Positions 1-13,518 of a stretch of 13,518 nt of DNA are shown in pieces (position 1 is the first letter of the stretch; each line of letters opens with the position of its first letter). The position numbers and the translations under genes were made by a program. The notes beneath the pieces were generated by a model. It worked only from the letters and a program-made list of their open reading frames with translations. It was not told the DNA's origin and did not search any database. Source of the stretch: a virus (Duplodnaviria; Heunggongvirae; Uroviricota; Caudoviricetes); IMG/VR virus record IMGVR_UViG_2541047745_000013, one strand, 5' to 3'.

Positions 1-819
1 ATGCGATTAGCCAGTCGTTTTGGTTATGCGAACCAGGTACGTCGTGATCGTCCGCTGACACACGAAGAACTGATGCGCCATGTACCGAGTATTTTTGGGG
101 AAGACCGACATACCTCCCGCAGTGAACACTATGCGTACATTCCCACTATCACCGTCCTGGAAAATCTGCAGCAGGAAGGCTTTCAGCCATTCTTCGCCTG
201 CCAGACCCGCGTACGTGACCCGGGCCGCCGGGGATACACAAAACACATGCTGCGCCTGCGCCGTAACGGGGAGATAAACGGACAACATGTCCCTGAAATT
301 ATTCTGCTCAACTCCCATGACGGTACCTCCAGCTACCAGATGCTGCCGGGTTACTTCAGATTCGTCTGCCAGAACGGCTGCGTCTGCGGTCAGTCTCTGG
401 GGGAAGTCCATGTGCCCCACCGGGGAAATGTGGTGGACAGAGTCATTGAAGGGGCTCACGAGGTAGTGGGCGTTTTTGACCGGATTGAGGAAAAGCGTGA
501 TGCCATGCAGTCTCTGGTTCTGCCGCCACCGGCACGTCAGGCACTGGCACAGGCGGCGCTGACTTACCGTTATGGTGATGAACATCAACCCGTCACCACT
601 GCCGACATTCTGACACCACGACGCCGGGAGGATTACGGTAAGGACCTGTGGAGCGCATATCAGACCATCCAGGAGAATATGCTGAAAGGCGGGATTTCCG
701 GCCGTAGTGCAAAAGGAAAACGTATCCATACCCGCGCCATTCACAGTATCGACACCGACATCAAGCTCAATCGCGCATTGTGGGTGATGGCGGAAACGCT
801 GCTGGAGAGTATGCGCTGA
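1..819 (+). CDS. DUF932-domain protein (YfjQ/YafZ family)
   Basis: 272-codon ORF with ATG at window position 1 and TGA at 817-819. The translation (MRLASRFG ... NRALWVMAETLLESMR) matches my recollection of YfjQ-type proteins. Upstream context is not visible, so the start cannot be verified. Confidence 0.8.
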   Translation: MRLASRFGYANQVRRDRPLTHEELMRHVPSIFGEDRHTSRSEHYAYIPTITVLENLQQEGFQPFFACQTRVRDPGRRGYTKHMLRLRRNGEINGQHVPEIILLNSHDGTSSYQMLPGYFRFVCQNGCVCGQSLGEVHVPHRGNVVDRVIEGAHEVVGVFDRIEEKRDAMQSLVLPPPARQALAQAALTYRYGDEHQPVTTADILTPRRREDYGKDLWSAYQTIQENMLKGGISGRSAKGKRIHTRAIHSIDTDIKLNRALWVMAETLLESMR

Positions 820-910
820 TGTTGTTTCCCTGAAAGTGCAACCCTGACTCACGTCTGTATCAGTCCCCAGGCATTCTTCCATTCATTTGCTTTTTATAAG
901 GAATAGTCTC

Positions 911-1396
911 ATGACAACCTCTTCGCATAATTCCACCACACCTTCTGTTTCCGTAACAACTGCATCAGGGAATAACCAGTCTCAACTGGTTGCCACTCCT
1001 GTCCCTGATGAACAGCGCATCAGTTTCTGGCCGCAGCATTTTGGCCTCATTCCACAGTGGGTGACCCTGGAGCCCCGTGTCTTCGGCTGGATGGACCGTC
1101 TGTGCGAAGACTACTGCGGTGGTATCTGGAATCTGTACACCCTGAACAACGGCGGGGCATTTATGGCCCCTGAACCGGATGGCGATGATGACGAAACATG
1201 GGTACTGTTCAATGCCATGAACGGTAACCGCGCTGAAATGAGCCCGGAAGCCGCCGGCATTGCCGCCTGTCTGATGACGTACAGCCATCACGCCTGCCGT
1301 ACGGAGTGTTATGTCATGACGGTTCATTATTACCGTCTGCGGGATTACGCCCTGCAGCATCCGGAATGCAGCGCCATTATGCGCATCATTGACTGA
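911..1396 (+). CDS. Antirestriction-family protein (YfjX/YafX-like)
   Basis: The open frame begins at TTG 887, but ATG 911 has an AAGGA 9 nt upstream and gives the MTT... N-terminus expected for this family. TGA stop at 1394-1396. Conserved-looking core WPQHFGLIPQWV ... GGIWNLYTLNNGG. Confidence 0.8.
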   Translation: MTTSSHNSTTPSVSVTTASGNNQSQLVATPVPDEQRISFWPQHFGLIPQWVTLEPRVFGWMDRLCEDYCGGIWNLYTLNNGGAFMAPEPDGDDDETWVLFNAMNGNRAEMSPEAAGIAACLMTYSHHACRTECYVMTVHYYRLRDYALQHPECSAIMRIID

Positions 1397-1411
1397 AAGG
1401 GGGCCGGAACA

Positions 1412-1888
1412 ATGCAACAGATTTCCTTTCTGCCCGGAGAAATGACAACCAGAGAGCGCAGCCTCATTCAGCGGGCCCTGAAAGCCCTGGACCGCCATCT
1501 TCATGAACCCGGCGTGGCCTTCACCTCCACCCGTGCGGCACGGGAATGGCTGATTCTGAACATGGCGGGACTGGAGCGTGAAGAATTCCGGGTGCTGTAT
1601 CTGAATAACCAGAATCAGCTGATTGCCGGTGAAACCCTCTTCACCGGCACCATCAACCGCACGGAAGTCCATCCCCGGGAGGTGATTAAACGCGCCCTGT
1701 ACCACAATGCCGCTGCCGTGGTGCTGGCACACAATCACCCGTCCGGTGAAGTCACACCCAGCAAGGCAGACCGCCTTATCACGGAACGTCTGGTACAGGC
1801 ACTGGGCCTGGTGGATATCCGGGTACCGGACCATCTGATAGTCGGTGGCAGCCAGGTTTTCTCCTTTGCGGAACACGGCCTGCTTTAA
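1412..1888 (+). CDS. RadC-like JAB/MPN-domain protein (YeeS/YfjY/YkfG family)
   Basis: 158-aa ORF with AGGGGG ribosome-binding site upstream of ATG 1412. Contains the HNHPSG JAMM-type motif (…VVLAHNHPSGEVTPSKAD…). TAA stop at 1886-1888. Confidence 0.9.
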   Translation: MQQISFLPGEMTTRERSLIQRALKALDRHLHEPGVAFTSTRAAREWLILNMAGLEREEFRVLYLNNQNQLIAGETLFTGTINRTEVHPREVIKRALYHNAAAVVLAHNHPSGEVTPSKADRLITERLVQALGLVDIRVPDHLIVGGSQVFSFAEHGLL

Positions 1889-1956
1889 CCCGTCACCGTC
1901 ACAACCACATCACACCTGTTTTCACTTTTATCTTCTGTCTTCAGAGGTATCCCATC

Positions 1957-2178
1957 ATGAAAATCATCACCCGTGGTGAAGCCATGCGTATTCACCGTCA
2001 GCATCCGGCATCCCGTCTTTTCCCGTTCTGTACCGGCAAATACCGCTGGCACGGCAGCACTGAAGCGTATACCGGTCGTGAAGTGCAGGATATTCCCGGT
2101 GTGCTGGCCGTGTTTGCTGAACGTCGTAAGGACAGTTTTGGCCCGTATGTCCGGCTGATGAGCGTCACCCTGAACTGA
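1957..2178 (+). CDS. DUF987-domain protein (YeeT/YpjJ/YkfH family)
   Basis: 73-aa ORF MKIITRGEAMRIHRQHP…RLMSVTLN, at the expected position between the RadC-like gene and the antitoxin. Confidence 0.8.
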   Translation: MKIITRGEAMRIHRQHPASRLFPFCTGKYRWHGSTEAYTGREVQDIPGVLAVFAERRKDSFGPYVRLMSVTLN

Positions 2179-2291
2179 TGTTCCGTCACCCGGAAAACGA
2201 GTACGACTGGCTGAGCTCAGACGCCGCTGTGGATGAGGCCCTGCTCATAAACGAATACACCTTTACCGAAGGCGGTCTGCGCGCCGGCTGA
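2178..2291 (+). CDS. Candidate 37-aa small ORF coupled to the DUF987 gene (speculative)
   Basis: ATG at 2178-2180 overlaps the DUF987 TGA (2176-2178) in a TGATG arrangement. Reads MFRHPENEYDWLSSDAAVDEALLINEYTFTEGGLRAG, stop TGA 2289-2291. No ribosome-binding site other than coupling; may be a remnant. Confidence 0.2.
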   Translation: MFRHPENEYDWLSSDAAVDEALLINEYTFTEGGLRAG

Positions 2292-2340
2292 CCTGTCATC
2301 GTTAAACCATTCTTAACCGATTTTCTGTGAGGATTTTATC

Positions 2341-2709
2341 GTGTCAGACGCACTCTCCGGGACAATGCTTCCCGACGACAATCACGACCGCCCCTGGTGG
2401 GGGCTGCCCTGCACCGTGACGCCCTGTTTCGGGGCACGTCTGGTGCAGGAGGGTAACCGCCTGCATTACCTTGCCGACCGCGCCGGTATCAGAGGCCTGT
2501 TCAGCGATGCAGATGCGTACCACCTGGACCAGGCCTTTCCGCTGCTGATGAAACAACTGGAACTCATGCTCACCAGCGGTGAACTGAATCCCCGCCATCA
2601 GCATACCGTCACGCTGTATGCAAAAGGTCTGACCTGCAAAGCTGACACTCTCGGTAGCGGTGGTTACGTTTATCTGGCTGTTTATCCGACGCCCGAAACG
2701 AAAAAGTAA
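2341..2709 (+). CDS. cbeA: Type IV toxin-antitoxin antitoxin CbeA (YeeU family)
   Basis: GTG start at 2341 with GAGGA about 8 nt upstream. The 122-aa translation ([49 protein letters not shown]…) closely matches my recollection of E. coli YeeU/CbeA. Confidence 0.9.
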
Positions 2710-2798
2710 ACCACCGGAATAATCGTCTGTTCCGGCCCGGTGCATTACAGCACCACTCTTCCCACAATTTACTCTCTCATATCAGGAATATCTTCAGT

Positions 2799-3176
2799 AT
2801 GAAAACATTACCCGACACACACGTACGGGAGGCATCGCGCTGCCTGTCTCCGGTTGAAATCTGGCAGACACTGCTCACCCGGTTACTGGACCAGCACTAC
2901 GGCCTCACACTGAATGACACACCGTTCGCTGATGAACGTGTGATTGAGCAGCATATTGAAGCAGGGATTTCACTGTGTGACGCGGTGAACTTTCTCGTTG
3001 AAAAATACGCCCTGGTGCGTACCGACCAGCCGGGATTCAGCCCCTGTACCCGCTCTCAGTTAATCAACAGTATCGATATCCTCCGGGCACGCCGGGCAAC
3101 CGGCCTGATGACCCGCGATAACTACAGAACGGTAAATAACATTACCCGGGGTAAGCATCCGGAGGCGAAACAATGA
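2799..3176 (+). CDS. cbtA: Type IV toxin-antitoxin toxin CbtA (YeeV/YkfI/YpjF family)
   Basis: 125-aa ORF with the conserved core [52 protein letters not shown] as recalled for YeeV. Lies immediately downstream of cbeA. Confidence 0.9.
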
Positions 3177-3661
3177 AACTGGCCCTGACGCCGGAAGCCG
3201 ATAGCATTAACGTGCAGGCACTGAACATGGGGCGCATTGTCGTTGACGTCGATGGTGTTACTCTCGCTGAACTGATTAACGTGGTCTGTGATAATGGCCA
3301 CTCCCTTCGTATTGTTGATGAATCTGACCGGGCCTCAACAGACTGCATGCCACCATTTGCTGCCCTTACCGGTATACGCTGCAGTACCGCACATATCACG
3401 GAAACGGACAACGCCTGGCTGTACTCGCTGTCACACCAGACTAATGACGACGGCGAATCAGAATGGATTCATTTTACCGGCAGCGGCTATCTGTTACGTA
3501 CTGATACGTGGCCGTATCCGGTTCTGCGGCTTAAACGACTGGGCCTGTCCAGAACGTTCCGCCGTCTGGTTGTCACTCTCATCCGCCGTTATGGCGTCAG
3601 TCTCATTCATCTGGATGCCAGTGCCAGATGCCTGCCGGGTTTACCCACTTTCAACTGGTAA
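3173..3661 (+). CDS. YeeW-like protein (DUF-type family that follows cbtA in CP4-type islands)
   Basis: 162-aa ORF whose ATG (3173-3175) overlaps the cbtA stop (ATGA at 3173-3176). Assignment rests on position and gene order, not on a recognised motif. Confidence 0.65.
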
Positions 3662-3672
3662 CCAGGAACAAC

Positions 3673-3870
3673 ATGAAATCATTAACCACGGAAACCGCAC
3701 TGGATATTCTGATTGCGTGGCTGCAGGACAATATCGACTGCGAATCGGGGATTATCTTCGACAACGATGAGGATAAAACGGATTCGGCAGCACTGCTGCC
3801 CTGTATTGAACAGGCCAGGGAAGATATCCGTACCCTGCACCAGTTGCAGTTTCTGCAACAGAACTGGTGA
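3673..3870 (+). CDS. DUF957-domain small protein
   Basis: ATG 3673 preceded by AGGA at 3663-3666. 65-aa product MKSLTTETALDILIAWLQDNIDCESGIIFDNDEDKTD…; the longer frame from 3628 lies inside the previous gene and is less likely. TGA stop 3868-3870. Confidence 0.7.
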   Translation: MKSLTTETALDILIAWLQDNIDCESGIIFDNDEDKTDSAALLPCIEQAREDIRTLHQLQFLQQNW

Positions 3871-3899
3871 GTCTTACTCACCAGACTTCATTCCACTGA

Positions 3900-3931
3900 C
3901 GCCAGCCTGAACAGGGCTGGCGTTTTCATTT
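3900..3931 (+). terminator. Rho-independent terminator after the cbeA-cbtA-yeeW-DUF957 block
   Basis: 7-bp GC-rich stem CGCCAGC (3900-3906) / GCTGGCG (3916-3922) with a 9-nt loop, followed by TTTTCATTT. Confidence 0.7.
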
Positions 3932-3984
3932 ATCTGCAAAAAGGAATATCGATTATATCTGAACTCACAGCCTCCCGTCCGGAA

Positions 3985-4809
3985 GTGGTCAACGGACATA
4001 CGGACGTTATCGGCTCAACCAGTATCCGCCACATTCTGGCTGTACGACAGAGTACATTGCTGCAAATCGACACACTTATCCGGCAACTGGCTGAAATCTC
4101 AGCAATGACAGTAAGTATTGGCGGTAAAACTGCACTGGACTGGGCCATGAAACAGGATTTTCGCTGCGGTTTCTGGCTGATGGAGAAACCTGAAATCGCA
4201 ATGAAAGCCATCACCCGGAATCTCGATCGCGAACTCTGGCGTGACCTGATGCAACGTTCCGGGATGCTTTCCTTAATGGATGCACAGGCCCGTGAGACAT
4301 GGTACCGGTCACTGGAGTACGATAATGTCCCGGAAATCAGTGAAGCAAACATTCTGAACACATTTAAACAACTGCACCAGAATAAGGATGAGGTGTTTGA
4401 GCGAGGGGTGATCAACGTCTTCAGGGGACTGAACTGGAATTACAAAACCAATTTACCCTGCAAATTTGGCAGTAAAATTATCGTCAACAATCTGGTGAGA
4501 TGGGACCGGTGGGGATTTCATATTGTCACCGGACAGCAGGCTGACCGGGTTGCTGACCTGGAAAGGATGCTGCACCTGTTCAGCGGCTGGCCCATCCCCG
4601 ACAACCGGGAAAATATCATCATCCGTCTGGATGACCACATTCAGTCCGCTCAGGGTCAGGAGTGCTATGAATATGAAGATGAGATGTTCAGCATCAGATA
4701 CTTTAAGAAGGGCTCCGCGCACATCACGTTCAGAAAACCGGAACTGATTGATCGGCTAAATGACATCATTGCGAAGTATTATCCAGAAATAATCCCATAC
4801 AATATCTAA
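3985..4809 (+). CDS. DUF4942-domain protein (conserved terminal gene of CP4-type islands); start codon uncertain
   Basis: 274-codon ORF ending TAA 4807-4809. The first canonical start in frame is GTG 3985 with no convincing ribosome-binding site; the frame is open back to 3871. Family call from recall of the gene order CbtA / YeeW-like / DUF957 / DUF4942. Confidence 0.65.
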   Translation: MVNGHTDVIGSTSIRHILAVRQSTLLQIDTLIRQLAEISAMTVSIGGKTALDWAMKQDFRCGFWLMEKPEIAMKAITRNLDRELWRDLMQRSGMLSLMDAQARETWYRSLEYDNVPEISEANILNTFKQLHQNKDEVFERGVINVFRGLNWNYKTNLPCKFGSKIIVNNLVRWDRWGFHIVTGQQADRVADLERMLHLFSGWPIPDNRENIIIRLDDHIQSAQGQECYEYEDEMFSIRYFKKGSAHITFRKPELIDRLNDIIAKYYPEIIPYNI

Positions 4810-4853
4810 TAAAACTAATCATTTCTTGTTGTGACTGATTTAGTTGAACCATA

Positions 4854-4899
4854 CTGCATGGTCGAGTAGACAGGGTATCTCAGACCATGCATGTATTTT
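4854..4899. terminator. Possible bidirectional terminator between convergent DUF4942 gene and integrase
   Basis: Inverted repeat TGCATGGTC (4854-4862) / GACCATGCA (4882-4890) followed by TTTTT (4895-4899). The 19-nt loop is long for an intrinsic terminator. Confidence 0.3.
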
Positions 4900-4901
4900 T
4901 A

Positions 4902-6221
4902 TCATCTGTTCCCAAATTTTATATGAATAACATTATCCGGAGCATTCTGCTGCACAGTAATGACGTTATTCATAATAAAATTCCCCCATTCTATAAATAA
5001 ATTTTTTAATTTTTCAGCTTGTTGTCCGACTTGATATGTTCGTATTAAACGGTCTTTGGGTACATGATTTAACAGTAACTCTATTAGGCGCTCTGGAGCA
5101 TCAAGGTATTCAGCGCATCCAGTCGCAACACTTCTACGCAGATCATGAGGAGAAAATGGAGTAAGTTCGGCTAGATACTTAGAGCGAACCCTTTCTAACG
5201 CGCGAGTCAGAGCGTCATTTGTGATGGGAAAGTCAGGTTTGCTAGTAGAACCAAAAACATATGCACCTTCAGTGAATTCACGTTGTGTTTTTATTAAAGA
5301 AAGCATATACGGATGTAAAGTAACAATATGGCTTTTCCCATTTTTAGTGGCTGGTATGGTCCAACGCTCTCCATTAATTTGATCCCAGCGCATTTGTGCC
5401 GCTTCAGAGCGGCGCACTCCTGTGAAAATAATCAAACGGAGTGCATTTGCGACAGAATGAGATAATACCACACTAGAGGAAATTCCATAGCCACCAGATG
5501 CAATGGAGCCTCCTCCAACAGTAGCATCATCCAAAGCCTTCCATAGCATCCGGAGTTCATTCTCAGGAAGCCATCGCTCGCGAGGTTTATTCATCGATGC
5601 ACCAAACATTGCTGGTTTGAGCAGTCGTGCTGGGTTATGCTCAAGCATACCCTGTAAGTTGGCATGATCAAGAGTCATATTTAGAATAATTAATCCTTTA
5701 CGAACTGCTTCAGAACTGGTTTTTCTTACATTACTGAGATGTTCAAAAATAACGCTTTTGGTAAGTTCGTCAATGCGAAGGTTTCCTAATGCTTTTTCAA
5801 GGTGGCGGTGATAAGTCCCTTCATAATCTGCAAGGGTTCTGGTGCTAATTGGTTTGCTTGTCTTTCTGAATTCTATCCAATCTTTCCATAATTCAGAGTA
5901 AATAATCATTTGTTCATTTTTTTGTTTTTCATTTTTTCTAATATGACGAGGATCTATACCTTTTCTTACTAATTCAATTGCATCCGCATGAGCTTTACGA
6001 GCTTGAGCTAATCCCATGGCAGGGTAACTACCTAGTGTTAATTTAGCTGGCTTTTGAGCTATTCGATAACGATAAATCCAGCTTTTATTGTCGCTACCAT
6101 AACGAACGCGTATAAAGAGTCCTCCCCCAGCTTTAGATTTTACAGCAAATAAGATTTCTTTTTCTTCTTTAGTAACGGTCAATGAAGCCAATTGTCTGTC
6201 TTGTGTAATAGTAAAAGTCAT
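4902..6221 (-). CDS. Tyrosine recombinase / phage integrase (P4-type; plausibly IntF-like of CP4-6-type islands)
   Basis: Open frame 4902-6257 on the - strand. Preferred start is the ATG at 6221-6219 (MTFTITQ…), which places the GGGL arm-binding motif at a typical distance; ATG 6257 is the alternative. C-terminal catalytic signature is present (…RRSEAAQ…, HDLRRSVAT, LNHV, RTYQ). Sampled 60-nt stretches are about 37-40% GC versus 52-60% in flanking genes. Confidence 0.9.
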   Translation of the reverse strand: MTFTITQDRQLASLTVTKEEKEILFAVKSKAGGGLFIRVRYGSDNKSWIYRYRIAQKPAKLTLGSYPAMGLAQARKAHADAIELVRKGIDPRHIRKNEKQKNEQMIIYSELWKDWIEFRKTSKPISTRTLADYEGTYHRHLEKALGNLRIDELTKSVIFEHLSNVRKTSSEAVRKGLIILNMTLDHANLQGMLEHNPARLLKPAMFGASMNKPRERWLPENELRMLWKALDDATVGGGSIASGGYGISSSVVLSHSVANALRLIIFTGVRRSEAAQMRWDQINGERWTIPATKNGKSHIVTLHPYMLSLIKTQREFTEGAYVFGSTSKPDFPITNDALTRALERVRSKYLAELTPFSPHDLRRSVATGCAEYLDAPERLIELLLNHVPKDRLIRTYQVGQQAEKLKNLFIEWGNFIMNNVITVQQNAPDNVIHIKFGNR

Positions 6222-6386
6222 ATCTTCAGCCTTTTGGGTACACAGCGGGGTACACATTTAACATGATATCATCAGAAACAAGGCGAAACATCTTGATACT
6301 GCATTTGTGTGTATTTTATTGATTTTTATATATTTTTTATTGTATGTTGAAACGGCTGTGAACATCTTGAATCACTGGTCTCGCTA

Positions 6387-6432
6387 ATTCGTAATGCGAA
6401 GGTCGTAGGTTCGACTCCTATTATCGGCACCA
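6387..6432 (+). other. 3' 46 nt of tRNA-Thr(CGU) (thrW-type): pseudo-tRNA / att core copy
   Basis: ATTCGTAATGCGAAGGTCGTAGGTTCGACTCCTATTATCGGCACCA matches the anticodon loop, T-arm, 3' acceptor strand and CCA of E. coli thrW as I recall it. The upstream sequence has no complementary 5' acceptor strand (GCCGATA) or D-arm, so this is not an intact tRNA. Confidence 0.85.
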
Positions 6433-6448
6433 TTCAAACATCTCCCCA

Positions 6449-6597
6449 AGTCTACTAAAGTCTTTCAAAACCCCTTATAATCCACGTATTAAAGCCCCGT
6501 TCGTCTTTTGACGTCTACTAAAGCCCCTCAAAATCTACGGTCAGATGGGGGTACTTATGGGGGTATTTGCTGTTCGGTTTAGTGGAGGTACCCCCAA
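6449..6597 (+). promoter_or_regulatory. Direct and inverted repeats between att core and integrase start (candidate arm-type / regulatory sites)
   Basis: TCTACTAAAG at 6451-6460 and again at 6515-6524, each followed by a (T/C)-rich tract then TCAAAA. TAAAGCCCC at 6490-6498 and 6518-6526. GGGGGTA twice (6547-6566) and the inverted complement GTACCCCC at 6587-6594, beside the GGAGG ribosome-binding site. Confidence 0.4.
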
Positions 6598-7812
6598 GTG
6601 AAACTCAATGCCCGTCAAATAGACACAGCCAAGCCAAAAGAGAAGGCTTACAAGCTGGCCGATGGTGGCGGTTTGTATCTCTTGGTAAAACCTAATGGAG
6701 GTAAATACTGGCGACTTAAATATCGTGTAGCTGGTAAAGAGAAGCTATTGGCACTAGGTGTGTATCCTGAGGTTACTCTAGCCGATGCTCGGGCAAAACG
6801 TGAAGATGCGAAAAGAGGTATCGCTGGTGGTATCGATCCGATGGAAGCGAAACGAGAGGAAAAGATTGCCCGGGAAACGCAGTTAAACAACACCTTCAAA
6901 GATATTGCCCTTGAGTGGCACAGCAGCAAATTAAAAAAATGGTCTGCTGGTTATGCTTCAGACATCCTCGAAGCCTTCAACAAAGATGTGTTCCCTTACA
7001 TTGGCAAAAAACCAATCGCCGAAATCAAACCACTTGAACTTCTGAATGTGCTGCGGCGCATCGAGGGGCGCGGTGCGACAGAAAAAGCCAAAAAAGTGAG
7101 GCAGCGGTGCGGGGAAGTTTTCCGCTATGCAATAGTCACTGGTCGCGCAGAGTATAACCCTGCACCAGACCTTACTAGCGCGATGCAAGGCCATGAATCT
7201 AATCATTACCCTTTCCTTACGACCAAAGAATTACCTGATTTTTTCAAGGCATTATCCAGTTACTCAGGAAGCGCATTGGTTGTTATGGCGGCTCGTCTAC
7301 TGATTATCACCGGCTTGCGAACTGGCGAACTACGTGGCGCATTATGGGATGAAATTGATTTCAACAAGGCTATATGGGAGATACCCGCTTCACGTATGAA
7401 AATGCGGCGGCCTCATATTGTGCCATTGTCTGAGCAGGCTCTTTCGCTTATTGGGAAGATTAGAGAAATAACAGGCAATTACCCTCTTATGTTTCCCGGG
7501 CGCAATGATCCAAGGAAAACAATGAGTGAGGCCAGCATAAACCAAGTGTTTAAGCGCATTGGCTACGCTGGACGTGTAACTGGTCATGGGTTCCGACACA
7601 CTATGAGCACGATTTTGCATGAGCAGGGCTATAACACCGCGTGGATAGAAACGCAGCTCGCTCACGTTGATAAGAACTCAATTCGTGGCACATACAACCA
7701 TGCGCAATATCTGGATGGACGGCGGGAGATGCTTCAATGGTATGCCGACTATATGGATTCTCTCGAGCATGGCGGAAATGTGGTGCATATGGTGTTTGAA
7801 AAACACGCATGA
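6598..7812 (+). CDS. Tyrosine recombinase / phage integrase (P4 / CP4-57 IntA-like)
   Basis: 404-aa ORF with GTG start at 6598 and GGAGG at 6582-6586. N-terminal arm-binding-like region (KPKEKAYKLADGGGLYLLVKPNGGKYWRLKYR…LGVYPEVTLADAR). C-terminal signature GLRTGELRG, HGFRHT, and the terminal tyrosine region AHVDKNSIRGTYNH. TGA stop 7810-7812. Confidence 0.9.
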   Translation: MKLNARQIDTAKPKEKAYKLADGGGLYLLVKPNGGKYWRLKYRVAGKEKLLALGVYPEVTLADARAKREDAKRGIAGGIDPMEAKREEKIARETQLNNTFKDIALEWHSSKLKKWSAGYASDILEAFNKDVFPYIGKKPIAEIKPLELLNVLRRIEGRGATEKAKKVRQRCGEVFRYAIVTGRAEYNPAPDLTSAMQGHESNHYPFLTTKELPDFFKALSSYSGSALVVMAARLLIITGLRTGELRGALWDEIDFNKAIWEIPASRMKMRRPHIVPLSEQALSLIGKIREITGNYPLMFPGRNDPRKTMSEASINQVFKRIGYAGRVTGHGFRHTMSTILHEQGYNTAWIETQLAHVDKNSIRGTYNHAQYLDGRREMLQWYADYMDSLEHGGNVVHMVFEKHA

Positions 7813-8062
7813 AACAACTGGACAAGTATACAGAGGTTTACTAAAGTATAGGGGAGTAGATTGATAAAAACTCACAGAGGATTGCTATTTAACAGTTAGC
7901 CCTGGAGAAGGGCAATCGCTCTTTTATAAACGAAGGTGTATTGAGCCTTCTACGCTGCTGAAAAGCGGAATGTTCTTTAACAGGCTTTGGCGCTGACAAA
8001 GCGCAATTGTTCTTTAAAACTACTGGATGTCACGCCTAATAGCGTGATCCTGCCGAAATGCA

Positions 8063-8076
8063 GGGTAGCTCTACCC
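8063..8076. promoter_or_regulatory. 14-bp palindrome GGGTAGCTCTACCC (candidate operator)
   Basis: Half-sites GGGTAG and CTACCC, perfectly inverted, in the int-alpA intergenic region. Confidence 0.3.
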
Positions 8077-8117
8077 TTGTGGAGCAAACAAACCAAAACA
8101 ATCTGACTATCTTTTAT

Positions 8118-8153
8118 AAAAGACCGCAATATGTTTTTCATATTGTGGTCTTT
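8118..8153. promoter_or_regulatory. 15-bp-arm palindrome AAAGACCGCAATATG-TTTTT-CATATTGTGGTCTTT (candidate operator or hairpin) upstream of alpA
   Basis: Arms differ at a single position around a TTTTT centre, about 90 bp upstream of the alpA ATG. The motif CTTTTATAAA immediately precedes it and also occurs at 7921-7930. Confidence 0.4.
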
Positions 8154-8239
8154 GGCGTATTCGACATTTGACGCAAATAAAACTCTCGCCATTCGTTGCA
8201 GGAGGGGGTTATTGCGTCATTAGTACAGGATATTAATAA

Positions 8240-8443
8240 ATGGCTAATTACAATTCATTAATTCGTCTCTCTGAAGTTCAAAGGCGAACTGGTTATAGCA
8301 AAGCATGGATTTATCGTCTTATTAGTCAGGGGAGGTTCCCTAAACAGGTAAAAATTGGAAGTCGGGCAATTGCTTTTGTTGAGTCTGAAATAGATGAATG
8401 GATTGAGAAGTGTATATTAGAATCTAGAGACGAGGTGGCCTGA
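8240..8443 (+). CDS. alpA: AlpA-family phage regulatory protein / excisionase-like helix-turn-helix protein
   Basis: 67-aa ORF with AGGA 9 nt upstream of the ATG. Motif IRLSEVQRRTGYSKAWIYRLISQGRFPKQVKIGSRAIAFVESEIDEWI matches the AlpA/Vis-type pattern. Confidence 0.85.
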   Translation: MANYNSLIRLSEVQRRTGYSKAWIYRLISQGRFPKQVKIGSRAIAFVESEIDEWIEKCILESRDEVA

Positions 8444-8874
8444 TGGAAAAGAAAAACCGCCCATTACAGGCGGCTAATTCAGATATTCGCGTATCTGATG
8501 TTACGCCCCTGACAAAATCCCTTCAAGCACCAAAGCGCACGCCGAAAAAGCATCGTGCCCGAGTCTATATGCTGCGTACTGGTATAGAGGGATGGACAGA
8601 AAATGACATTCTTCGCTACTGCCGTCTGTCTTCTGGTCGTAACTATGCAACAGAGTTAGAACGCCAGCTCGGAATCACTCTGGAGCGTATCGACGAAAAG
8701 AATCCTGATGGTATCGGAACACACCTTCGCTACCGTTTCTCCTGCCGTGGTGATGTTCTGAAAGTGATCACTCATATTAACCATCTTGCGAACATAAATG
8801 ATCACAACGGACTTTCTCAGCAGGAAATTGCCGACATTCTGAAACTCTACCCGGACGCGTTTAACGCCGCCTAA
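8443..8874 (+). CDS. Hypothetical protein (143 aa), translationally coupled to alpA
   Basis: ATG at 8443 overlaps the alpA TGA (TGATG). The translation looks like ordinary protein; no family recognised. Confidence 0.6.
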   Translation: MEKKNRPLQAANSDIRVSDVTPLTKSLQAPKRTPKKHRARVYMLRTGIEGWTENDILRYCRLSSGRNYATELERQLGITLERIDEKNPDGIGTHLRYRFSCRGDVLKVITHINHLANINDHNGLSQQEIADILKLYPDAFNAA

Positions 8875-8886
8875 CGGAGACTGAAA

Positions 8887-9720
8887 ATGAACATCGAAAA
8901 AAGCAGATTAATTTCTGAGGCTGCCCCTCATCTGAACGCCTCTCTGGGCACAATTAACGGTAATGAATTTGCCGCAATTGTCCCGGTTATTCCTGGTCAT
9001 ATCGGTGGGCGTGAAACCAATATTGTTAGCGCAAAAGCGTTACACAAAGCGTTGGGCGTGGGAAAAGACTTCTCTACATGGATCACTGATCGCATCTCTG
9101 AATATGACTTCACCATTGGGCACGATTACTCAGTCCATAAAACTATTTCCCCAAATTTGGGGAAAATCCCGAATGGCGCGGCTTACAGCAAGATTAAGCA
9201 GTCTGGAAGACCCGGCAAAGACTATCTGTTAAGTGTCGGAATGGCGAAAGAACTGGCAATGATCGAACGCAATGATCAGGGGCGCGCTATCCGCCGTTAT
9301 TTCATCCAGTGCGAGGAAGAATTACAGCGTAGCGTGCCTGAAATCGCCGCCCGCTATCGTCGCCAGCTAAAAGCCCGTATCAGTGCCGCAAACAACTTTA
9401 AGCCAATGTGCGATGCGCTGAATATGGCCCGTGCCGAGATGGGGAAAACGACGCAGCAACACCACTACACAAACGAGAGCAATATGATTTCTCGTATCGT
9501 TCTTGGTGGGCTAACTGCTAAGCAGTGGGCGCGGATAAATGGCTATTCTGGCGAACCTCGCGACCATATGAACGCAGAACAGCTTGAGCACCTCTCATAT
9601 CTCGAAAGCACCAATATCACGTTAATTGATATGGGCATGGAATATGAGCAGCGCAAAGGAGAACTCACCCGCCTGTCGCAACGCTGGCTCGCTAAGCGTC
9701 TGGAGGCGGTCCATGTTTAA
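8887..9720 (+). CDS. Phage antirepressor-like protein (AntA-domain-like N-terminal region)
   Basis: 277-aa ORF with GGAG upstream. The region …ALHKALGVGKDFSTWITDRISEYDFTIGHDY…GRPGKDYLLSVGMAKELAMIERNDQGRAIRRYFIQCEEEL resembles AntA-type antirepressor domains as I recall them; not verified by search. Confidence 0.55.
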   Translation: MNIEKSRLISEAAPHLNASLGTINGNEFAAIVPVIPGHIGGRETNIVSAKALHKALGVGKDFSTWITDRISEYDFTIGHDYSVHKTISPNLGKIPNGAAYSKIKQSGRPGKDYLLSVGMAKELAMIERNDQGRAIRRYFIQCEEELQRSVPEIAARYRRQLKARISAANNFKPMCDALNMARAEMGKTTQQHHYTNESNMISRIVLGGLTAKQWARINGYSGEPRDHMNAEQLEHLSYLESTNITLIDMGMEYEQRKGELTRLSQRWLAKRLEAVHV

Positions 9721-9895
9721 GCCGACAGGAACACCACAACCTCAAAAACGCTACAAAGATGCCCACGGAGCACTCGTTACTGTCGAAAGCGTGTCTCACA
9801 ACCGAGTGACGTTTTATCGCGACGGGTATCAATCGCCATGCGTACAACCGCTGGCACGTTTCATGAAGGAGTTCGCGGAGGTTAACAAATGCTAA
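9713..9895 (+). CDS. Small hypothetical protein (60 aa; possibly DUF4222-like)
   Basis: ATG 9713 with GGAGG at 9702-9706, overlapping the upstream TAA (9718-9720). Product [60 protein letters not shown]. Confidence 0.55.
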   Translation: MFKPTGTPQPQKRYKDAHGALVTVESVSHNRVTFYRDGYQSPCVQPLARFMKEFAEVNKC

Positions 9896-10956
9896 CCGCC
9901 CAGAAGAAGACATTTTCACTGGCTGGTATGTCGCCAAAATCCAGCAATATGACAGCAAAGTCAGGCATTAATACAGCAGATACAAGCAAAGTTTATCATT
10001 TGCTGGTGGTAGGAGCGGATGCCTTAACTATGTCAGAAATTACGGTCGATGGTGTTAGCGTTGAGAAGGTCAGCGGCTGCGCCAGAGAATTTCTGGTCGT
10101 AGATGGCTTTCTCTGCTCGCGTAGTGACTCCACAAAAACCTTCGTCCACGCGCGTGACGTTAACGAAATGAGCGCGATGTACTGTGCTTCTGGTTCTTCC
10201 AATAGTGAGTTTTCGGAGTCCATAAAAAAGAGCTTGCCGTTATGCGGCAACACGGTTTATGGTTATAAGGCACCTCATAAAACGGGTGCCGGGATTGGCG
10301 TCCTGGTAAATCGAATGGCGACATATGACGCGCCGAGCGTCTTTTTTTATGTCGTAGGTCTGACTCACCCATTTTTTGGGCGTTGGTGTATAATCCAGCG
10401 CCTTTGTCAATCAATGGTGGCTCAGGCAGGGGCTTCTTCGGAAGCGCCGGTATCCATTCGAGCCGGTTACGCCAACCCTGTCTGGGCTACCACCAGCGAA
10501 ATTGGCGTTTCCGGTGGTAGCGTTACATGCTATCGAATGGAGGCTGCCACATGCTGGCTACTACCCCTACCCAAAAACCGCAATTTATCTGGATTATCGC
10601 CGCAGTTCGCCGCGATTGCCCGACAATTACCGCCAAAATTCATCATATTGCTGCCGAGTCTGAACGCGATGCTCGCCGTTCTCTGGTGCGCGATCACGTC
10701 TGCTTTTTTGCTGGTCGTATCCGCATGGAGGTGGCACATGATTAAAACCTACGATGTGCATATGGATCCCCTCGAACGCACAAGCCAGATCATCACACTG
10801 ACAGAAGTGATTAACGACATTCTGGTGAGCAACTCTCCCTCACGAGACGAAAGACTGAAGGCGTTACTCGCGATATTGGATCTCGCCGTTCGTGACGTTC
10901 ATTTCCTGCTGGAAGGTGGCGAAATGCCAGTAAAAACGGGGGAAACCAATGAATAA
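9889..10956 (+). CDS. ORF of unresolved extent: strong coupled start at 9889, frame open for 355 codons through a terminator-like hairpin, a promoter-like element and the Icd-like gene
   Basis: ATG 9889 with GGAGG at 9877-9881 overlaps the upstream stop. The other two + frames have many stops across 9889-10330. The first roughly 145 codons look coding; beyond about 10330 the translation is A/S/G/L/P-rich and resembles off-frame reading. No in-frame stop until 10954-10956. Confidence 0.3.
10327..10348 (+). terminator. Candidate intrinsic terminator (short GC stem plus T7 run)
   Basis: GACGC (10327-10331), loop GCCGA, GCGTC (10337-10341), then TTTTTTT (10342-10348). The stem is only 5 bp. Confidence 0.35.
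10360..10394 (+). promoter_or_regulatory. Candidate sigma70 promoter (perfect -10 TATAAT with upstream TG; weak -35) for the icd-like operon
   Basis: TATAAT at 10389-10394 preceded by TG at 10387-10388 and a T-rich tract at 10372-10377. No good TTGACA at 17-bp spacing. Confidence 0.35.
10400..10530 (+). ncRNA. Candidate structured leader / immunity-type antisense RNA region (P1 c4 / P4 CI-like by position) upstream of the icd-like gene
   Basis: Hairpin GCTTC-TTCG-GAAGC at 10432-10445 (UUCG tetraloop closed by C-G). A 9-bp stem GCTACCACC (10486-10494) / GGTGGTAGC (10513-10521) with an 18-nt loop. A related motif TGGTGGCTCAGG at 10415-10426. Translation of this stretch looks non-protein-like. 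Confidence 0.3.
10551..10745 (+). CDS. Host cell-division inhibitor Icd-like small protein
   Basis: ATG 10551 with GGAGG at 10540-10544. 64-aa product [64 protein letters not shown] resembles Icd-like proteins of P4-type prophages as I recall them. TAA stop 10743-10745. Confidence 0.55.
   Translation: MLATTPTQKPQFIWIIAAVRRDCPTITAKIHHIAAESERDARRSLVRDHVCFFAGRIRMEVAHD
10738..10956 (+). CDS. Hypothetical small protein (72 aa)
   Basis: ATG 10738 with GGAGG at 10727-10731 overlaps the icd-like stop. Acidic, helical-looking product. Same frame as the long 9889 ORF. Confidence 0.5.
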   Translation: MIKTYDVHMDPLERTSQIITLTEVINDILVSNSPSRDERLKALLAILDLAVRDVHFLLEGGEMPVKTGETNE

Positions 10957-11143
10957 CTCAATTAATACCCCTCGCCTTACGTCCGCACTTCAATTAATCG
11001 AGCAAGCAGCGGCTGTCCTGGTTGCTGTCAGTCTTTCGGCTGAAGAAATGGACGCTACTGATGTCGTGGATGCGATTAAAGCGTGCTCATCTTTGGTTAA
11101 CGATGCCCGTGCAGAGCTGGTAATTCTTGGGGGTGAAAAATGA
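10949..11143 (+). CDS. Hypothetical small protein (64 aa)
   Basis: ATG 10949 with GGGGGA upstream overlaps the previous stop by 8 nt. Product [64 protein letters not shown]. Confidence 0.55.
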   Translation: MNNSINTPRLTSALQLIEQAAAVLVAVSLSAEEMDATDVVDAIKACSSLVNDARAELVILGGEK

Positions 11144-11403
11144 ATATCAACTTAATTTATCGTCATCCGTGTGAGCTGGAAATTGAATCATTGCTGAGCC
11201 GTGAAGAGCCATATCCAGACACATTCACTCTTGCAGATCGCACGACTGAACGGCTTACCAGAGCGCGCACAGGTCTGGTTCATGTGATGAATGAGATTCT
11301 TCCATCGGTGGGAGGGGAACAGGCGACAGTAATCACTAGCTGGCTACAAAAAGTTACCTCTCTGATAGATATCAGTTTAATCGATGCGGAGAGTGCGAAA
11401 TGA
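11140..11403 (+). CDS. Hypothetical protein (87 aa)
   Basis: ATGA overlap with the previous stop at 11140-11143; G-rich ribosome-binding site upstream. Confidence 0.6.
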   Translation: MNINLIYRHPCELEIESLLSREEPYPDTFTLADRTTERLTRARTGLVHVMNEILPSVGGEQATVITSWLQKVTSLIDISLIDAESAK

Positions 11404-11621
11404 CCAACATCCAGCTCATTGAAGCGCAATGTCGCATCGAACAGGTTCAGACTGTTTTAGGGTTCTGGCTTGAAGGGGCCAGCCCCAGCAACAGAGACAA
11501 GTTAATGATTGGCGCGGTTATGTCACTGCTCAATGGCGTACCAGAAGCTATTCAGGAAGCAGACGAATTGTTGGGCAAATATGAGTTACAGAATCATTCA
11601 GGCGAGGCGAAACATGAATAA
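11400..11621 (+). CDS. Hypothetical protein (73 aa)
   Basis: ATGA overlap at 11400-11403; GGAG 8 nt upstream. Confidence 0.6.
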   Translation: MTNIQLIEAQCRIEQVQTVLGFWLEGASPSNRDKLMIGAVMSLLNGVPEAIQEADELLGKYELQNHSGEAKHE

Positions 11622-12216
11622 TTTCTTAACTTTCCATGCAGAAGCAACGCCTGACGGCGTAAACATCATGCACCGCAGCAACGATGGCATGACAGAACGC
11701 GTTGAGACCGTCTCATATATTGATGCCGTAAATCGTCTGGATGCCGGGGATTATGACGATAAACCAGATGAAGGCATGTCAATACATCTCGCTATAGCCG
11801 ATGGCGGCAACCAGGGATATTTCGATTACACATCACAGCATAACGTCATTATGTGGAGATGGCTGATCGCAACAGTATTCATGCTGGAAATGAGAGAGGA
11901 AAACGGCACTGTCAGCATCATTGATGATACTGGCAATCCTTCCGAAGTGGCTGTTTATTCCAACGGCATCGTCGCCATGCCGCTGTATCCAGTAGCAGAG
12001 CGCCTCGCTATGGCAAACAACATTGAGGGCGCGATGATAGAACGTTTTGGCATCGAGTCTGGCACAGAACGCGCCATCATTTTCTACAGAGCCATGATGG
12101 ATGTGGAACAAGGAGCACTGACTCCATTTGGTCGTGAAACGCTTGCTGAACTTCACAACAGCTTTATAGCTGAACTGAATGAAAACGGCATGCCAGCGGA
12201 ACCAGTGACGCACTGA
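11614..12216 (+). CDS. Hypothetical protein (200 aa)
   Basis: ATG 11614 with GAGG at 11604-11607, overlapping the previous gene by 8 nt. The track ORF beginning 11509 is the same frame read through the upstream gene. No family recognised. Confidence 0.6.
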   Translation: MNNFLTFHAEATPDGVNIMHRSNDGMTERVETVSYIDAVNRLDAGDYDDKPDEGMSIHLAIADGGNQGYFDYTSQHNVIMWRWLIATVFMLEMREENGTVSIIDDTGNPSEVAVYSNGIVAMPLYPVAERLAMANNIEGAMIERFGIESGTERAIIFYRAMMDVEQGALTPFGRETLAELHNSFIAELNENGMPAEPVTH

Positions 12217-12226
12217 GGATGGAGCC

Positions 12227-12568
12227 ATGATTACTAAAAATTTCCGACTGAATGCGCTGGCAAATAAGTATGCGTCGGCACTGTATAACCACATTACCTC
12301 CACCAGCGGCGGGGACTATTTCATGGTTGATGCGGACGGCGAGGCCGTACGTGTGGAAATCGTCAATGGAGTAAAAGGCGTTCGCAGCCTGATCGATAGC
12401 TACACACTGGCAGCCATGAAAGTGTTCTACCCGCAGTGGGAAACCGTGGGGATCGAGCTTCTTGATCGTTGCGTCACTAAGGACGGATTGACTGACGTCG
12501 GGCGTGAGATATGGCAAAGCATGGTTAATGACATGGGCGCAACTGTAGCGGGAGGTTCTCATGCGTGA
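12227..12568 (+). CDS. Hypothetical protein (113 aa)
   Basis: ATG 12227 with GAGGA at 12216-12220. No family recognised. Confidence 0.6.
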   Translation: MITKNFRLNALANKYASALYNHITSTSGGDYFMVDADGEAVRVEIVNGVKGVRSLIDSYTLAAMKVFYPQWETVGIELLDRCVTKDGLTDVGREIWQSMVNDMGATVAGGSHA

Positions 12569-12932
12569 AAATGCAGAAATGGCGCTTAGCTCCGCAATCG
12601 GAGAGCAGGTGGCAAAGATTGCTGGTGCTGTGTGGATTCATAACCTTCATTCTACTGGTGAAGAGAAAATGGCAATTCAGACGCCAGAGGGACGCACCAT
12701 TACTACATCTCTGAAGCCGTCAGATGTTTGTGATCTGATTTGCGCATTCATGTACCCAGCAATGAGGACTGCCCACGGCGATAAGTGGAAACTTGCGACA
12801 ACCGCTGAATTTGATATGTGGCTAAACAATGATGGCATGCTGACTGATTACGGAATAACCAAGTGGCAGATGCTGGTTAGCCATATCGCAAACGCTATAG
12901 ACCACGTGGGGTACGGTGATGCGAAACATTGA
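12561..12932 (+). CDS. Hypothetical protein (123 aa)
   Basis: ATG 12561 with GGAGG at 12551-12555, overlapping the previous stop by 8 nt. Confidence 0.6.
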   Translation: MRENAEMALSSAIGEQVAKIAGAVWIHNLHSTGEEKMAIQTPEGRTITTSLKPSDVCDLICAFMYPAMRTAHGDKWKLATTAEFDMWLNNDGMLTDYGITKWQMLVSHIANAIDHVGYGDAKH

Positions 12933-13518
12933 TCTTATCCGTCAGGTTATCAGTGCGTCTGAAAACAACTGGCCTCATGTGCTGGGCTGCCTGAACATAA
13001 ATGTCCCTGACTCTCCGCGCCGTCATGCTCCCTGCCCTGCATGTGGGGGCAAAGATCGATTCCGGTTCGATGACAACGGGCGCGGTAGCTTCATCTGTAA
13101 TCAGTGCGGCGCTGGTGATGGGCTGGATTTAATTAAACGCGTAAATAACTGCGACACAACAGAGGCGGCGCTTCTTGCCGCTGATGTTCTGGGTATTGAT
13201 TACCGGACAACGGAAACACCAGAAGCCACCAGCCAGAAACGGGAACAACTGGAAACCGAGCGCCAGCGACGCGAACAGGAGCGCCTGAAAAGGGCAGAGA
13301 AGGACGAACAACAAAGACGGGATACGTTTTCCCGTCAGTTTGATGACATGCGCAGAAAGGCTGTAAACGGCAAATCTGATTATCTGGTTGCGAAAGGGGT
13401 AGGTGATTTTACATTCCCCGTGTTGCCCGATGGATCTCTGTTGCTGGCGCTGGTGGATAAATCCGGCGCAGTCACAGCAGCACAGACTATTACCTCACAT
13501 GGTGAAAAAAGACTCCTG
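12919..13518 (+). CDS. DNA primase, P4 alpha / PICI Pri-type (N-terminal zinc-ribbon; 3' truncated by window end)
   Basis: ATG 12919 overlaps the upstream stop (12930-12932). My own translation gives …HAPCPACGGKDRFRFDDNGRGSFICNQCGAGDGLDLI…, the CxxC…CxxC zinc-binding motif of P4-type primases, followed by a charged ERQRREQERLKRAEKDEQQRR linker. This ORF is absent from the supplied track because it has no stop in the window. Confidence 0.85.
   Translation, partial: MRNIDLIRQVISASENNWPHVLGCLNINVPDSPRRHAPCPACGGKDRFRFDDNGRGSFICNQCGAGDGLDLIKRVNNCDTTEAALLAADVLGIDYRTTETPEATSQKREQLETERQRREQERLKRAEKDEQQRRDTFSRQFDDMRRKAVNGKSDYLVAKGVGDFTFPVLPDGSLLLALVDKSGAVTAAQTITSHGEKRLL

Follow-up and report, generated by a model that had tools for sequence, protein, structure and literature searches.

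A candidate P4-type RNA switch precedes a coupled chain of small acidic genes and the primase of an EcCIMP1-type satellite of Escherichia coli

Introduction

The closest described relatives of the locus considered here are the Gram-negative phage-inducible chromosomal islands (PICIs) and satellite P4. The locus lies in a 13,518-nucleotide stretch of DNA (IMG/VR record IMGVR_UViG_2541047745_000013; below, the window, with positions counted from its first letter), where a chain of small genes that opens with an Icd-like gene runs from 10551 to 12932 (+ strand) into a primase gene. The genes had been described in an earlier reading of the sequence alone (below, the original prediction) as translationally coupled, unrecognised apart from the Icd-like one, and a plausible home for interference, anti-defence or replication-accessory proteins.

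Gram-negative PICIs are organised in Integration, Bro, Replication and Late zones, and their C4 and isrK Rfam matches are relatives of the P4 CI RNA and seqA (PMC10111431). AlpA is the master activator in these islands, a role shown experimentally for the alpA gene of EcCIMP1, a 19,963-bp island whose excision and transduction required the P22-like helper Kapi1 as well as alpA (PMC11773190). EcCIMP1 shows superinfection immunity, yet a known defence system was not found in it; its small genes stayed hypothetical, and its RNAs and Icd-like gene were not analysed (PMC11773190).

The left operon of P4 has the order PLE, seqA, cI RNA, seqC, kil/eta, epsilon, orf151, orf106 (cnr) and alpha. Of these genes, kil is reportedly the first to be translated in the immunity-controlled operon, where its translation is said to prevent termination, and Cnr is said to bind the alpha primase-initiator and to restrain replication. 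In the immI region of phage P1, which consists of c4 RNA, icd and ant1/ant2, translation of icd is required for the coupled genes downstream. Kil is nested inside the longer eta open reading frame (ORF) in P4 (PMC10111431), and 90% of P4-like satellites have a cnr-family gene between epsilon and alpha (PMC8628076). At the isrK-orf45-anrP locus of Gifsy-1 in Salmonella (Hershko-Shalev et al. 2016, PMC4825925), a short RNA turns on translation of a small ORF situated upstream of the gene to which it is coupled.

Results

By sequence, the element is of the EcCIMP1 type, a known E. coli satellite type among the Gram-negative PICIs: over the shared stretch, window positions 6387–13518 were 97.9% identical in nucleotides to the EcCIMP1 region of E. 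coli MP1, the att core was the same, and the gene order was equal (int, alpA, a gene for a 143-amino-acid (aa) protein, an antA-like gene, DUF4222, Ash/Icd, six hypotheticals, and a primase with TOPRIM and DUF927 domains). The copies differ in surroundings, the one in the window adjoining a CP4-44-like island with CbtA/CbeA and not the MP1 context. Every gene from 6598 onward was on the + strand, and both parts of the PICI gene layout that was looked for were present, an integrase followed by a co-oriented alpA and a primase downstream in the same orientation; as far as gene content tells, the organisation fits the PICI zone scheme (PMC10111431). Helper-dependent excision, replication and packaging would carry over to this copy from EcCIMP1 through the 97.9% identity.

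Eight ORFs, the Icd-like gene and seven small genes here designated p2 to p8, were found with ATG starts, head to tail on the + strand, each where the original prediction had placed it: the Icd-like, Kil-like first cistron (10551–10745, 64 aa, basic; NCBIfam NF033153, 3.7e-20), p2 (10738–10956, 72 aa, acidic, in the variable slot right after Icd), p3 (10949–11143, 64 aa, acidic), p4 (11140–11403, 87 aa, acidic), p5 (11400–11621, 73 aa, acidic, predicted helix-loop-helix), p6 (11614–12216, 200 aa, net charge −21), p7 (12227–12568, 113 aa) and p8 (12561–12932, 123 aa), which runs over the primase ATG at 12919. Successive junctions from Icd to p2 and onward to the primase were −8, −8, −4, −4, −8, +10, −8 and −14 nt. 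The uniform 1–8-nt overlaps that had been claimed were found in five of the seven internal junctions, as overlaps of 4 or 8 nt, but p6 and p7 are separated by a 10-nt spacer and the overlap of p8 with the primase is 14 nt. Each gene had the ribosome-binding site ascribed to it, a Shine–Dalgarno (SD)-like purine motif 4–8 nt 5′ of every start (in order, GGAGG, GGAGG, GGGGGAA, GGGGGTGA, GGAGAG, GAGG, GGAG/GAGG and GGGAGG), and the overlapping start and stop junctions suit the proposed translational coupling. The + strand within 10551–12932 showed neither promoter-like nor terminator-like sites. The placement of the region in the early operon of a P4-like or PICI satellite, between an Icd-like gene and the primase, was borne out, but it had passed over the isrK-like and C4/CI-like RNAs of a P4-type switch, the identity of Icd as a Kil, the nested status of p2 and the link of the 200-aa protein to Cnr.

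The reading frames were compared with sixteen p6-anchored loci of other species and three Icd-anchored E. coli loci (numbered with the prefix L where one has to be told from another). The −4 or −8 spacing (+8 to +16 nt after p6) recurred in the 16 loci of other genera and in the three E. coli loci despite differing gene cassettes, and this recurrence in 16 related loci makes the arrangement more than chance. The p4, p5, p6 and p7 genes were kept as ORFs at 40–70% aa identity across genera. For p3–p8 pooled against EcCIMP1, nonsynonymous divergence (pN) was 0.0026 and synonymous divergence (pS) 0.020, a pN/pS of ~0.13; the pooled value was used because too few substitutions per gene made the single-gene ratios (against EcCIMP1 and L003) uninformative. 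Alternative frames of every gene, other than the one crossed by the Ash frame described below, held 3–16 stops each. The 3.3-kb stretch was present at ≥99.5% identity in many complete E. coli genomes, and the p2–p3 segment in 486 of 5,426 complete E. coli genomes (~9%), always at ≥97.6% identity.

Upstream of icd, an isrK-like RNA element (10270–10347, + strand; Rfam RF01394, 67.1 bits with a gathering score of 50) contained a seqA-like box TCGAATGG (10311–10318, + strand) and an intrinsic terminator (10327–10341, + strand, then a T-run). A C4/CI-like antisense immunity RNA (10410–10497, + strand; Rfam RF01695, 79.5 bits with a gathering score of 45, full-length model match) was encoded 54 nt upstream of icd, and its seqB-like loop CCATTCGA (10454–10461, + strand) was complementary to TCGAATGG. 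The seqC-like target TCGAATGGA (10533–10543, + strand), with 9 nt complementary to the C4 loop, was fused to the icd SD GGAGG, the box itself (10533–10541) lying 36 nt downstream of C4, with 9 nt between it and the icd ATG. TCGAATGG occurred exactly three times in the 13.5-kb window, at 10311 in isrK (+), at 10454 in the C4 loop (complement) and at 10533 abutting the icd SD (+), and the position of the three copies identifies the arrangement as the seqA/seqB/seqC layout of P4.

The pair of isrK and C4 genes was kept in 10 of 11 related loci. In the window and ten C4-carrying relatives, nine different C4 loop sequences were present (that of L008 is CTGTGGAA, a specificity other than the window's), and an exact 8–11-nt complement of the loop was found in all 11 loci, next to the first-cistron SD and 34–39 nt downstream of C4. 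The isrK-side complement of the loop, at isrK position ~41–43, was found in 8 of the 11. Anatomy, complementarity and covariation of the switch were read directly from the loci. Matched changes of loop and target are hard to explain unless the pairing is functional, and we infer from them an antisense RNA that masks the icd ribosome-binding site; a single such RNA would gate the whole coupled chain, primase included. Across the related loci L004–L018, the loop of the immunity RNA has at least nine sequence variants, each with matching targets, and this pattern suggests that the islands fall into many immunity types that do not cross-react. The Rfam 'int-alpA RNA' motif (RF02996) was seen between int and alpA in L004, L007, L010, L014 and L018 and stayed below the gathering score in the window.

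The order of parts is that of P4, with an AlpA/Vis-like gene, an Ash/Eta ORF over a CI-type RNA, a Kil/Icd first cistron, small genes and a primase. The likeness extends to sequence in three of these: Icd is 43% identical to Kil (over the C-terminal 65 aa, the Kil part, of the old P4 'cI' ORF, E 5.6e-9), the N-terminus of the primase is 34% identical to that of alpha, and the core of p6 appears remotely homologous to ORF106. The Icd-like gene is a homologue of P4 Kil and the first cistron of a putative P4-type RNA-immunity operon. The locus departs from P4 in having seven small genes and not three, among which no epsilon or orf151 homologues were found, in the DUF927 domain in the C-terminal part of its primase, and in an Icd that is out of frame with the Ash ORF; psu, delta and sid were not seen in the full elements L001 and L021, and the helper is a P22-like podovirus (EcCIMP1 type), not P2. 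With P1 immI the locus shares a C4-family antisense RNA upstream of an icd-type small ORF, but the genes downstream are not ant1/ant2, an antirepressor-like gene stands upstream of the RNA, and the operon continues into a primase. With Gifsy-1 it shares an isrK-family leader that has its own terminator and a read-through mRNA controlled at the ribosome-binding site of a small ORF (PMC4825925); there the payload is an antirepressor, whereas here a C4 RNA is encoded separately, and seven small genes with a primase make up the payload.

An Ash/Eta-like ORF of 355 aa (9889–10956, + strand; Pfam Phage_ASH, 3e-30) starts 7 nt before the DUF4222 stop, is ATG/stop-coupled back to alpA, covers both RNA genes, crosses icd in another frame and ends with p2. 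The Phage_ASH match spans aa 124–232, that is nt 10258–10584, and the 'Ash protein family' domain (PF10554) coincides there exactly with the isrK and C4 RNA genes. In this locus at least, the PF10554 model scores the translated DNA of conserved structured RNAs. The same family served as a P4 epsilon marker in one satellite survey (PMC8628076); P4 epsilon itself matches PF25738, a different family. Nesting of the Kil/Icd gene in Eta/Ash is in frame in most relatives, where Ash is fused to Icd as eta is to kil in P4, and out of frame in the window, L003, L013 and L109, where one base fewer precedes the icd ATG (GCCACATG as opposed to GCCGCTATG) and the frames are shifted. This 1-base difference, at 10545–10551 (compare L008, 6325–6337), toggles between an Ash–Icd fusion and an Ash that bypasses Icd, both of them common in nature; in the bypass state the Ash ORF is fused to whichever gene comes next.

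Because p2 is in frame with the 355-aa Ash ORF, it is not clearly an independent gene, and it may be only the C-terminal 72 residues of the Ash/Eta-like protein, in which case the operon holds six small genes. We judge this unlikely on balance, with a substantial chance of being right. The shared frame (9889–10956) is stop-free in seven E. coli alleles; RefSeq annotates either a 355-aa 'ash family protein' (in many genomes) or an Ash pseudogene with a 64-aa Icd-like protein, and no RefSeq record examined has a separate p2 call; and the nested eta/kil of P4 is a precedent (PMC10111431). Against these stand the ATG of p2 itself, preceded at 6 nt by GGAGG and placed so that p2 overlaps the end of icd by 8 nt, a geometry like that of an unrelated 59-aa gene that fills the p2 slot in L013 and L107–L109 with the same −8 overlap, and a 72-aa p2 product called by GenBank gene callers on >1000 contigs. 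Of 11 polymorphic sites in p2, 5 were synonymous in its own frame, as opposed to 0 and 2 in the alternative frames. It is only the 1-nt indel before the icd ATG that makes the Ash frame cross icd, and synonymous resampling gave a stop-free Ash frame over icd with P ~0.16–0.20; the −8 overlap by itself puts Ash in frame with whatever gene comes next. With a stop-free frame expected in 16–20% of cases and an automatic join, the Ash–p2 fusion was not treated as significant. The two readings are compatible, nested genes being possible, and p2 could be a nested gene, the Ash C-terminus, or both. Its coding status is weakly supported in comparison with p3–p8, and the count of seven genes amounts to six firm genes and one nested or terminal reading frame.

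All compared loci had a tightly coupled chain of variable content. A p4-like gene (87 aa; 55–59% identity in most related loci, and present in the Icd-anchored E. coli samples as well) and a p6-like gene (196–208 aa) recurred almost everywhere, p5 alternated with a 66-aa 'NFRV' gene, p7 was present in about half of the loci, p3 in one other locus (61% identity in L014, Enterobacter), and p8 and p2 were confined to the EcCIMP1 type (p8, among the 16 species loci, to the EcCIMP1-type L003, plus E. coli L001). The frames are accordingly conserved in related elements together with variable cassettes, p4 and p6 forming a recurrent core between slots that are swapped from element to element. No known function was found for the alternative cassettes of the related loci either. 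In L014 (Enterobacter adelaidei, 4545–7957) the chain before the primase reads p3-like, NFRV, p4, p5, two tandem p6 paralogues and p7, and isrK, C4 and Icd are missing. The p7-like frame of L017 (Photorhabdus, 2642–3265) runs on for 207 codons into the primase region, a length that a frameshift, a fusion or an assembly error may explain. In L011, titled Chryseobacterium sp. 18061, the 143-aa gene and p7 were 82% and 65% identical, and in the EKP1 phage record (Elizabethkingia) p7 was 64% identical; a typically enterobacterial form of this operon in records labelled as Flavobacteriia suggests contamination or mislabelling. Databases propagate spurious product names: p4 is labelled 'nicotinic acetylcholine receptor subunit beta', the relatives of p6 in Klebsiella phages carry the name '2-polyprenylphenol hydrolase', and a cassette gene of 104 aa in L107 is given as 'ubiquinol-cytochrome C reductase'.

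Scans of all eight proteins returned the Icd-like family (NCBIfam) and function-less PHROGs for p5 (phrog_20558, 2.9e-9; orthologues of ~41% identity in 6 loci), p6 (phrog_1515, 1.2e-47; 550 homologue clusters) and p7 (phrog_37628, 2.2e-49; 131 homologue clusters) only; p8 had 21 homologue clusters, down to 51% identity. That nothing beyond the Icd-like gene is recognisable was upheld, as none of p2–p8 matched Pfam, NCBIfam or PADLOC, the best PADLOC-DB hits (E 0.005–0.03) being fragments of unrelated models. The profile searches that had been proposed, and a structure search with p6, found no characterised family for the seven, except that p6, which had been singled out as the largest product without a known function and is still without a Pfam, NCBIfam or PADLOC family, was linked remotely to DUF5375. 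By BLASTP and tblastn, p2–p8 had no similarity to P4 genes or to 80 P4-like viral contigs. P4 epsilon (Derepression, PF25738) and ORF151 gave P ≥ 0.036 by hhalign with the p6, p7 and p8 profiles, and nothing with p2–p5, which were compared by BLASTP and Pfam only. The p2–p8 proteins are all acidic (isoelectric point (pI) 4.2–5.6) and the 143-aa protein, DUF4222 and Icd are basic; the seven are small and do not look DNA-binding.

Relationships within the chain were judged against column-permutation nulls of profile pairs. The pair p7 and p8 scored 30.7 (null 12.7±2.7, reached by 0 of 100 permutations), p7 and the C-terminal part of p6 24.8 (12.8±2.5, 1 of 100), p2 and p4 21.2 (8.7±1.6, 0 of 40) and p3 and p5 20.5 (8.8±1.9, 0 of 40); p8 with p6 and most other pairs of small families were not above the nulls. 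These scores support p7 and p8 as distant paralogues and are suggestive for p7–p6, p2–p4 and p3–p5. The seven genes appear to form three sets of distant, tandem-duplicated paralogues, p2/p4, p3/p5 and p6/p7/p8, and the collinearity of p2–p3 with p4–p5 suggests that a two-gene unit was duplicated long ago.

The p6 helical core is, by profile alignment, a remote homologue of P4 ORF106/DUF5375 (Cnr). P4 ORF106 is the Pfam family DUF5375 (PF17345, 2.9e-63), and the p6 family aligned with it by hhalign over 91 columns at a probability of 83% (P 8.7e-6, score 35.3), p6 residues 76–186 matching ORF106 residues 9–101 with a 25-residue beta-hairpin of p6 as an insertion. Shuffles of ORF106 (n = 200) scored 10.9±2.0 with a maximum of 18.2, none of the 200 reaching 35.3, and the reversed sequence scored 12.7. 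DUF5375 was the only Pfam family matched, weakly, by more than one p6 relative, and three p6 homologues carry a precomputed PF17345 match. Like ORF106, p6 shares an operon with the satellite primase gene and precedes it. Among the options of the original prediction the homology favours, for p6, that of a replication accessory; interference and anti-defence roles were neither supported nor refuted. A scan of viral contigs for a DUF5375 profile returned 80 sequences, all 93–100% identical to the query and nearly all identical to one another, and was of no use for building one. The AlphaFold2 model of p6 built on a 54-sequence alignment had a predicted local distance difference test score (pLDDT) of 94.9 and a predicted template modelling score of 0.89, with an N-terminal beta domain and a helical core, and replaced a first, unusable model from a shallow alignment (≥63% identity) with a pLDDT of 45. 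No structural neighbour of the p6 model was found.

A search of the Protein Data Bank with the p6, p7 and p8 profiles found nothing except polyubiquitin chains for p8, with E down to 8e-16. These E-values were rejected as a repeat-summing artefact, nine identical repeats contributing ~6 bits each. Aligned by hhalign to a single ubiquitin, the p8 profile gave P 4.9e-4 and a score of 25.5 versus 10.3±2.0 for shuffles; NEDD8 scored 14.0, and SUMO and the paralogue p7 gave nothing.

The remaining parts of the island are in PICI order. The attL core TCCTATTATC (6416–6425, + strand) had one exact match in the window and equals the EcCIMP1 core repeat (PMC11773190); attR and the element end lie outside the window, so that of the PICI att pair only the attL core is visible. 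It is followed on the + strand by a tyrosine integrase of 404 aa (6598–7812; Pfam Phage_int_M 1.3e-34, Arm-DNA-bind_3 1.4e-28, Phage_integrase 1.8e-26), an AlpA-family regulator of 67 aa (8240–8443; Pfam Phage_AlpA 7.4e-20), a basic 143-aa protein (8443–8874; pI 9.5, ATGA-coupled to alpA, no Pfam match, 50–98% identity in related loci), an AntA/Bro-network antirepressor-like protein of 277 aa (8887–9720; Pfam AntA 1.4e-21) that corresponds to the 'Bro zone' of PICIs (PMC10111431), and a DUF4222 protein of 60 aa (9713–9895; Pfam DUF4222 8.7e-25, with RefSeq annotation in L001). The window ends inside the primase/helicase gene (12919–13518, + strand; 918 aa in full; Pfam Zn_Ribbon_Prim 7.8e-16), of which full-length copies in L001 and L021 are annotated 'TOPRIM and DUF927 domain-containing protein', with DUF927 in the C-terminal part.

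Beyond the window, 3′ of the primase (L001 20239–24897; L021 6481–11649), lies a block like P22 gp14-gp7-gp20-gp16, made up of DUF2824, a 225-aa protein, a 'phage DNA ejection protein' and, in MP1, a large lytic-transglycosylase-domain protein, with a PerC-family regulator also there; ejection-protein genes downstream of the primase fit a P22-like helper. To the left, window positions 1–6257 hold a second, unrelated CP4-44-like island in tandem with the PICI, with genes for DUF932, an antirestriction protein, RadC/JAB, DUF987, a CbeA/CbtA type IV toxin-antitoxin system, DUF5983 and DUF4942, and an inward-facing integrase on the minus strand (4902–6257). No intact tRNA gene is present in the window.

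Discussion

Taken together, positions 10551–12932 probably form the distal portion of an early ('left-operon-like') transcription unit in an EcCIMP1-type PICI, with a proposed RNA gate at its entry and a p6 block, possibly Cnr-like, before the primase. The operon-level mechanism would be of a known kind, and it is well supported by the anatomy and covariation of the switch. Ribosomes ending one cistron would restart on the next, by way of the 4–14-nt start/stop overlaps and the one 10-nt spacer, and the first cistron, Icd, with its SD fused to the seqC-like box, would be the control point. A processed C4/CI-like antisense RNA would mask the icd ribosome-binding site, as in P4 immunity and in P1 c4-icd-ant; left untranslated, the RNA would be terminated, which would keep the small genes and the primase off. 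As everything downstream is start/stop-coupled, one masking event at icd would silence all seven small genes and the primase. When a helper switches on AlpA, transcription together with translation through the long Ash ORF would override the block. RNA processing, Rho-dependent polarity and the override by AlpA are transferred to this switch by analogy. For the p6(-p7-p8) block, which is upstream of and coupled to the primase, we tentatively propose that its products act with or on the primase-initiator, as partners or modulators whose amount is kept in fixed proportion to it, a role that is plausible but short of an even chance; p2–p5 as small protein-binding adaptors aimed at helper or host proteins are a guess.

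Several points weigh against this picture. The working of the switch in this element is argued from P4, P1 and Gifsy-1; in Gifsy-1 the short IsrK RNA activates and does not repress, so that the sign of the isrK contribution here is uncertain, and L014 keeps a coupled chain without isrK, C4 and Icd, so that the chain is not strictly dependent on the RNA switch. The match of p6 to PF17345 did not reach the gathering score: the p6 of the window had no match at E ≤ 10, and among the 54 family members 2 had one, with a best E of 0.16. At twice the size of Cnr, p6 has in addition an N-terminal beta domain and the inserted hairpin, and ORF106 is taken to be cnr, in keeping with its gene position. Temperate phages, among them phiP27, Stx phages, Klebsiella phages, CharmingMan and phi467, have relatives of p6 (31–36% identity) and p7 (61–64%) in their early regions, where they adjoin ORF6N/antirepressor genes and are not near a P4-type primase, which argues against a strictly primase-specific role. 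Within the chain, the p2/p4, p3/p5 and p6/p7 links are weak, with hhalign probabilities of 8–16%, and p8 and p6 are not directly related by profile.

The main rival holds that one or more of p2–p8 do not serve replication of the island but bind proteins of the helper phage (Kapi1/P22-like) or the host, acting in interference, superinfection exclusion, anti-repression or anti-defence. In being small and acidic they resemble many phage protein-binding inhibitors, PADLOC has no match for p2–p8, their cassette-like slots swap between elements, the phage relatives of p6 and p7 adjoin antirepressor genes, and P4 has epsilon, its helper derepressor, at the equivalent position. No similarity to epsilon or to any defence or anti-defence model was found, however, p4 and p6 are a core conserved across genera and not rapidly swapped cargo, and the sole detectable homology, that of p6 to Cnr, points to replication control; we consider this rival improbable, if to be taken seriously. 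Still less expected, and rather improbable, is that at least one of p2–p8 is a new helper- or host-directed effector (for instance behind the immunity of EcCIMP1 to Kapi1), or that p8 is a ubiquitin-like beta-grasp protein; p6 would then be a new fold linking the Cnr family to temperate-phage early proteins.

It is very unlikely that the small genes are toxin-antitoxin or abortive-infection pairs (such as Icd/p2, p2/p3 or p4/p5), serving to stabilise the island or to kill cells that become infected. Small genes overlap in pairs, p2–p3 and p4–p5 look duplicated, and the Icd/Kil members of P1 and P4 are toxic when overexpressed; but no toxin-antitoxin or abortive-infection model was matched in Pfam, NCBIfam or PADLOC, all seven proteins are acidic and none is nuclease-, kinase- or membrane-toxin-like, and the genes would be silent by design under the immunity RNA, unlike constitutive toxin-antitoxin modules. 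Chance open frames in a long untranslated primase leader, for which only the lack of family matches for p2, p3, p4 and p8 speaks, are a negligible prospect and for p3–p8 are refuted by the conservation data, given the aa-level conservation across genera, the pooled pN/pS, the p6 model, the stops in the alternative frames of other genes, and the conserved SD motifs and coupling junctions.

On the reading preferred here, that of an RNA-gated early operon, what had been seven hypotheticals becomes a testable picture of one RNA switch with diversified specificities and a coupled chain that ends in the primase. The two core genes p4 and p6 are now set apart from the swappable slots, and p6, with a confident model that has no known structural neighbour, gains a concrete hypothesis, the Cnr-like control of the primase-initiator. 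The island type is carried by ~9% of complete E. coli genomes and has a proven helper phage, and a quarter of its early operon is uncharacterised. If the small proteins cause the superinfection immunity of EcCIMP1, they would be new phage-interference factors; otherwise they would be ordinary housekeeping genes of the satellite.

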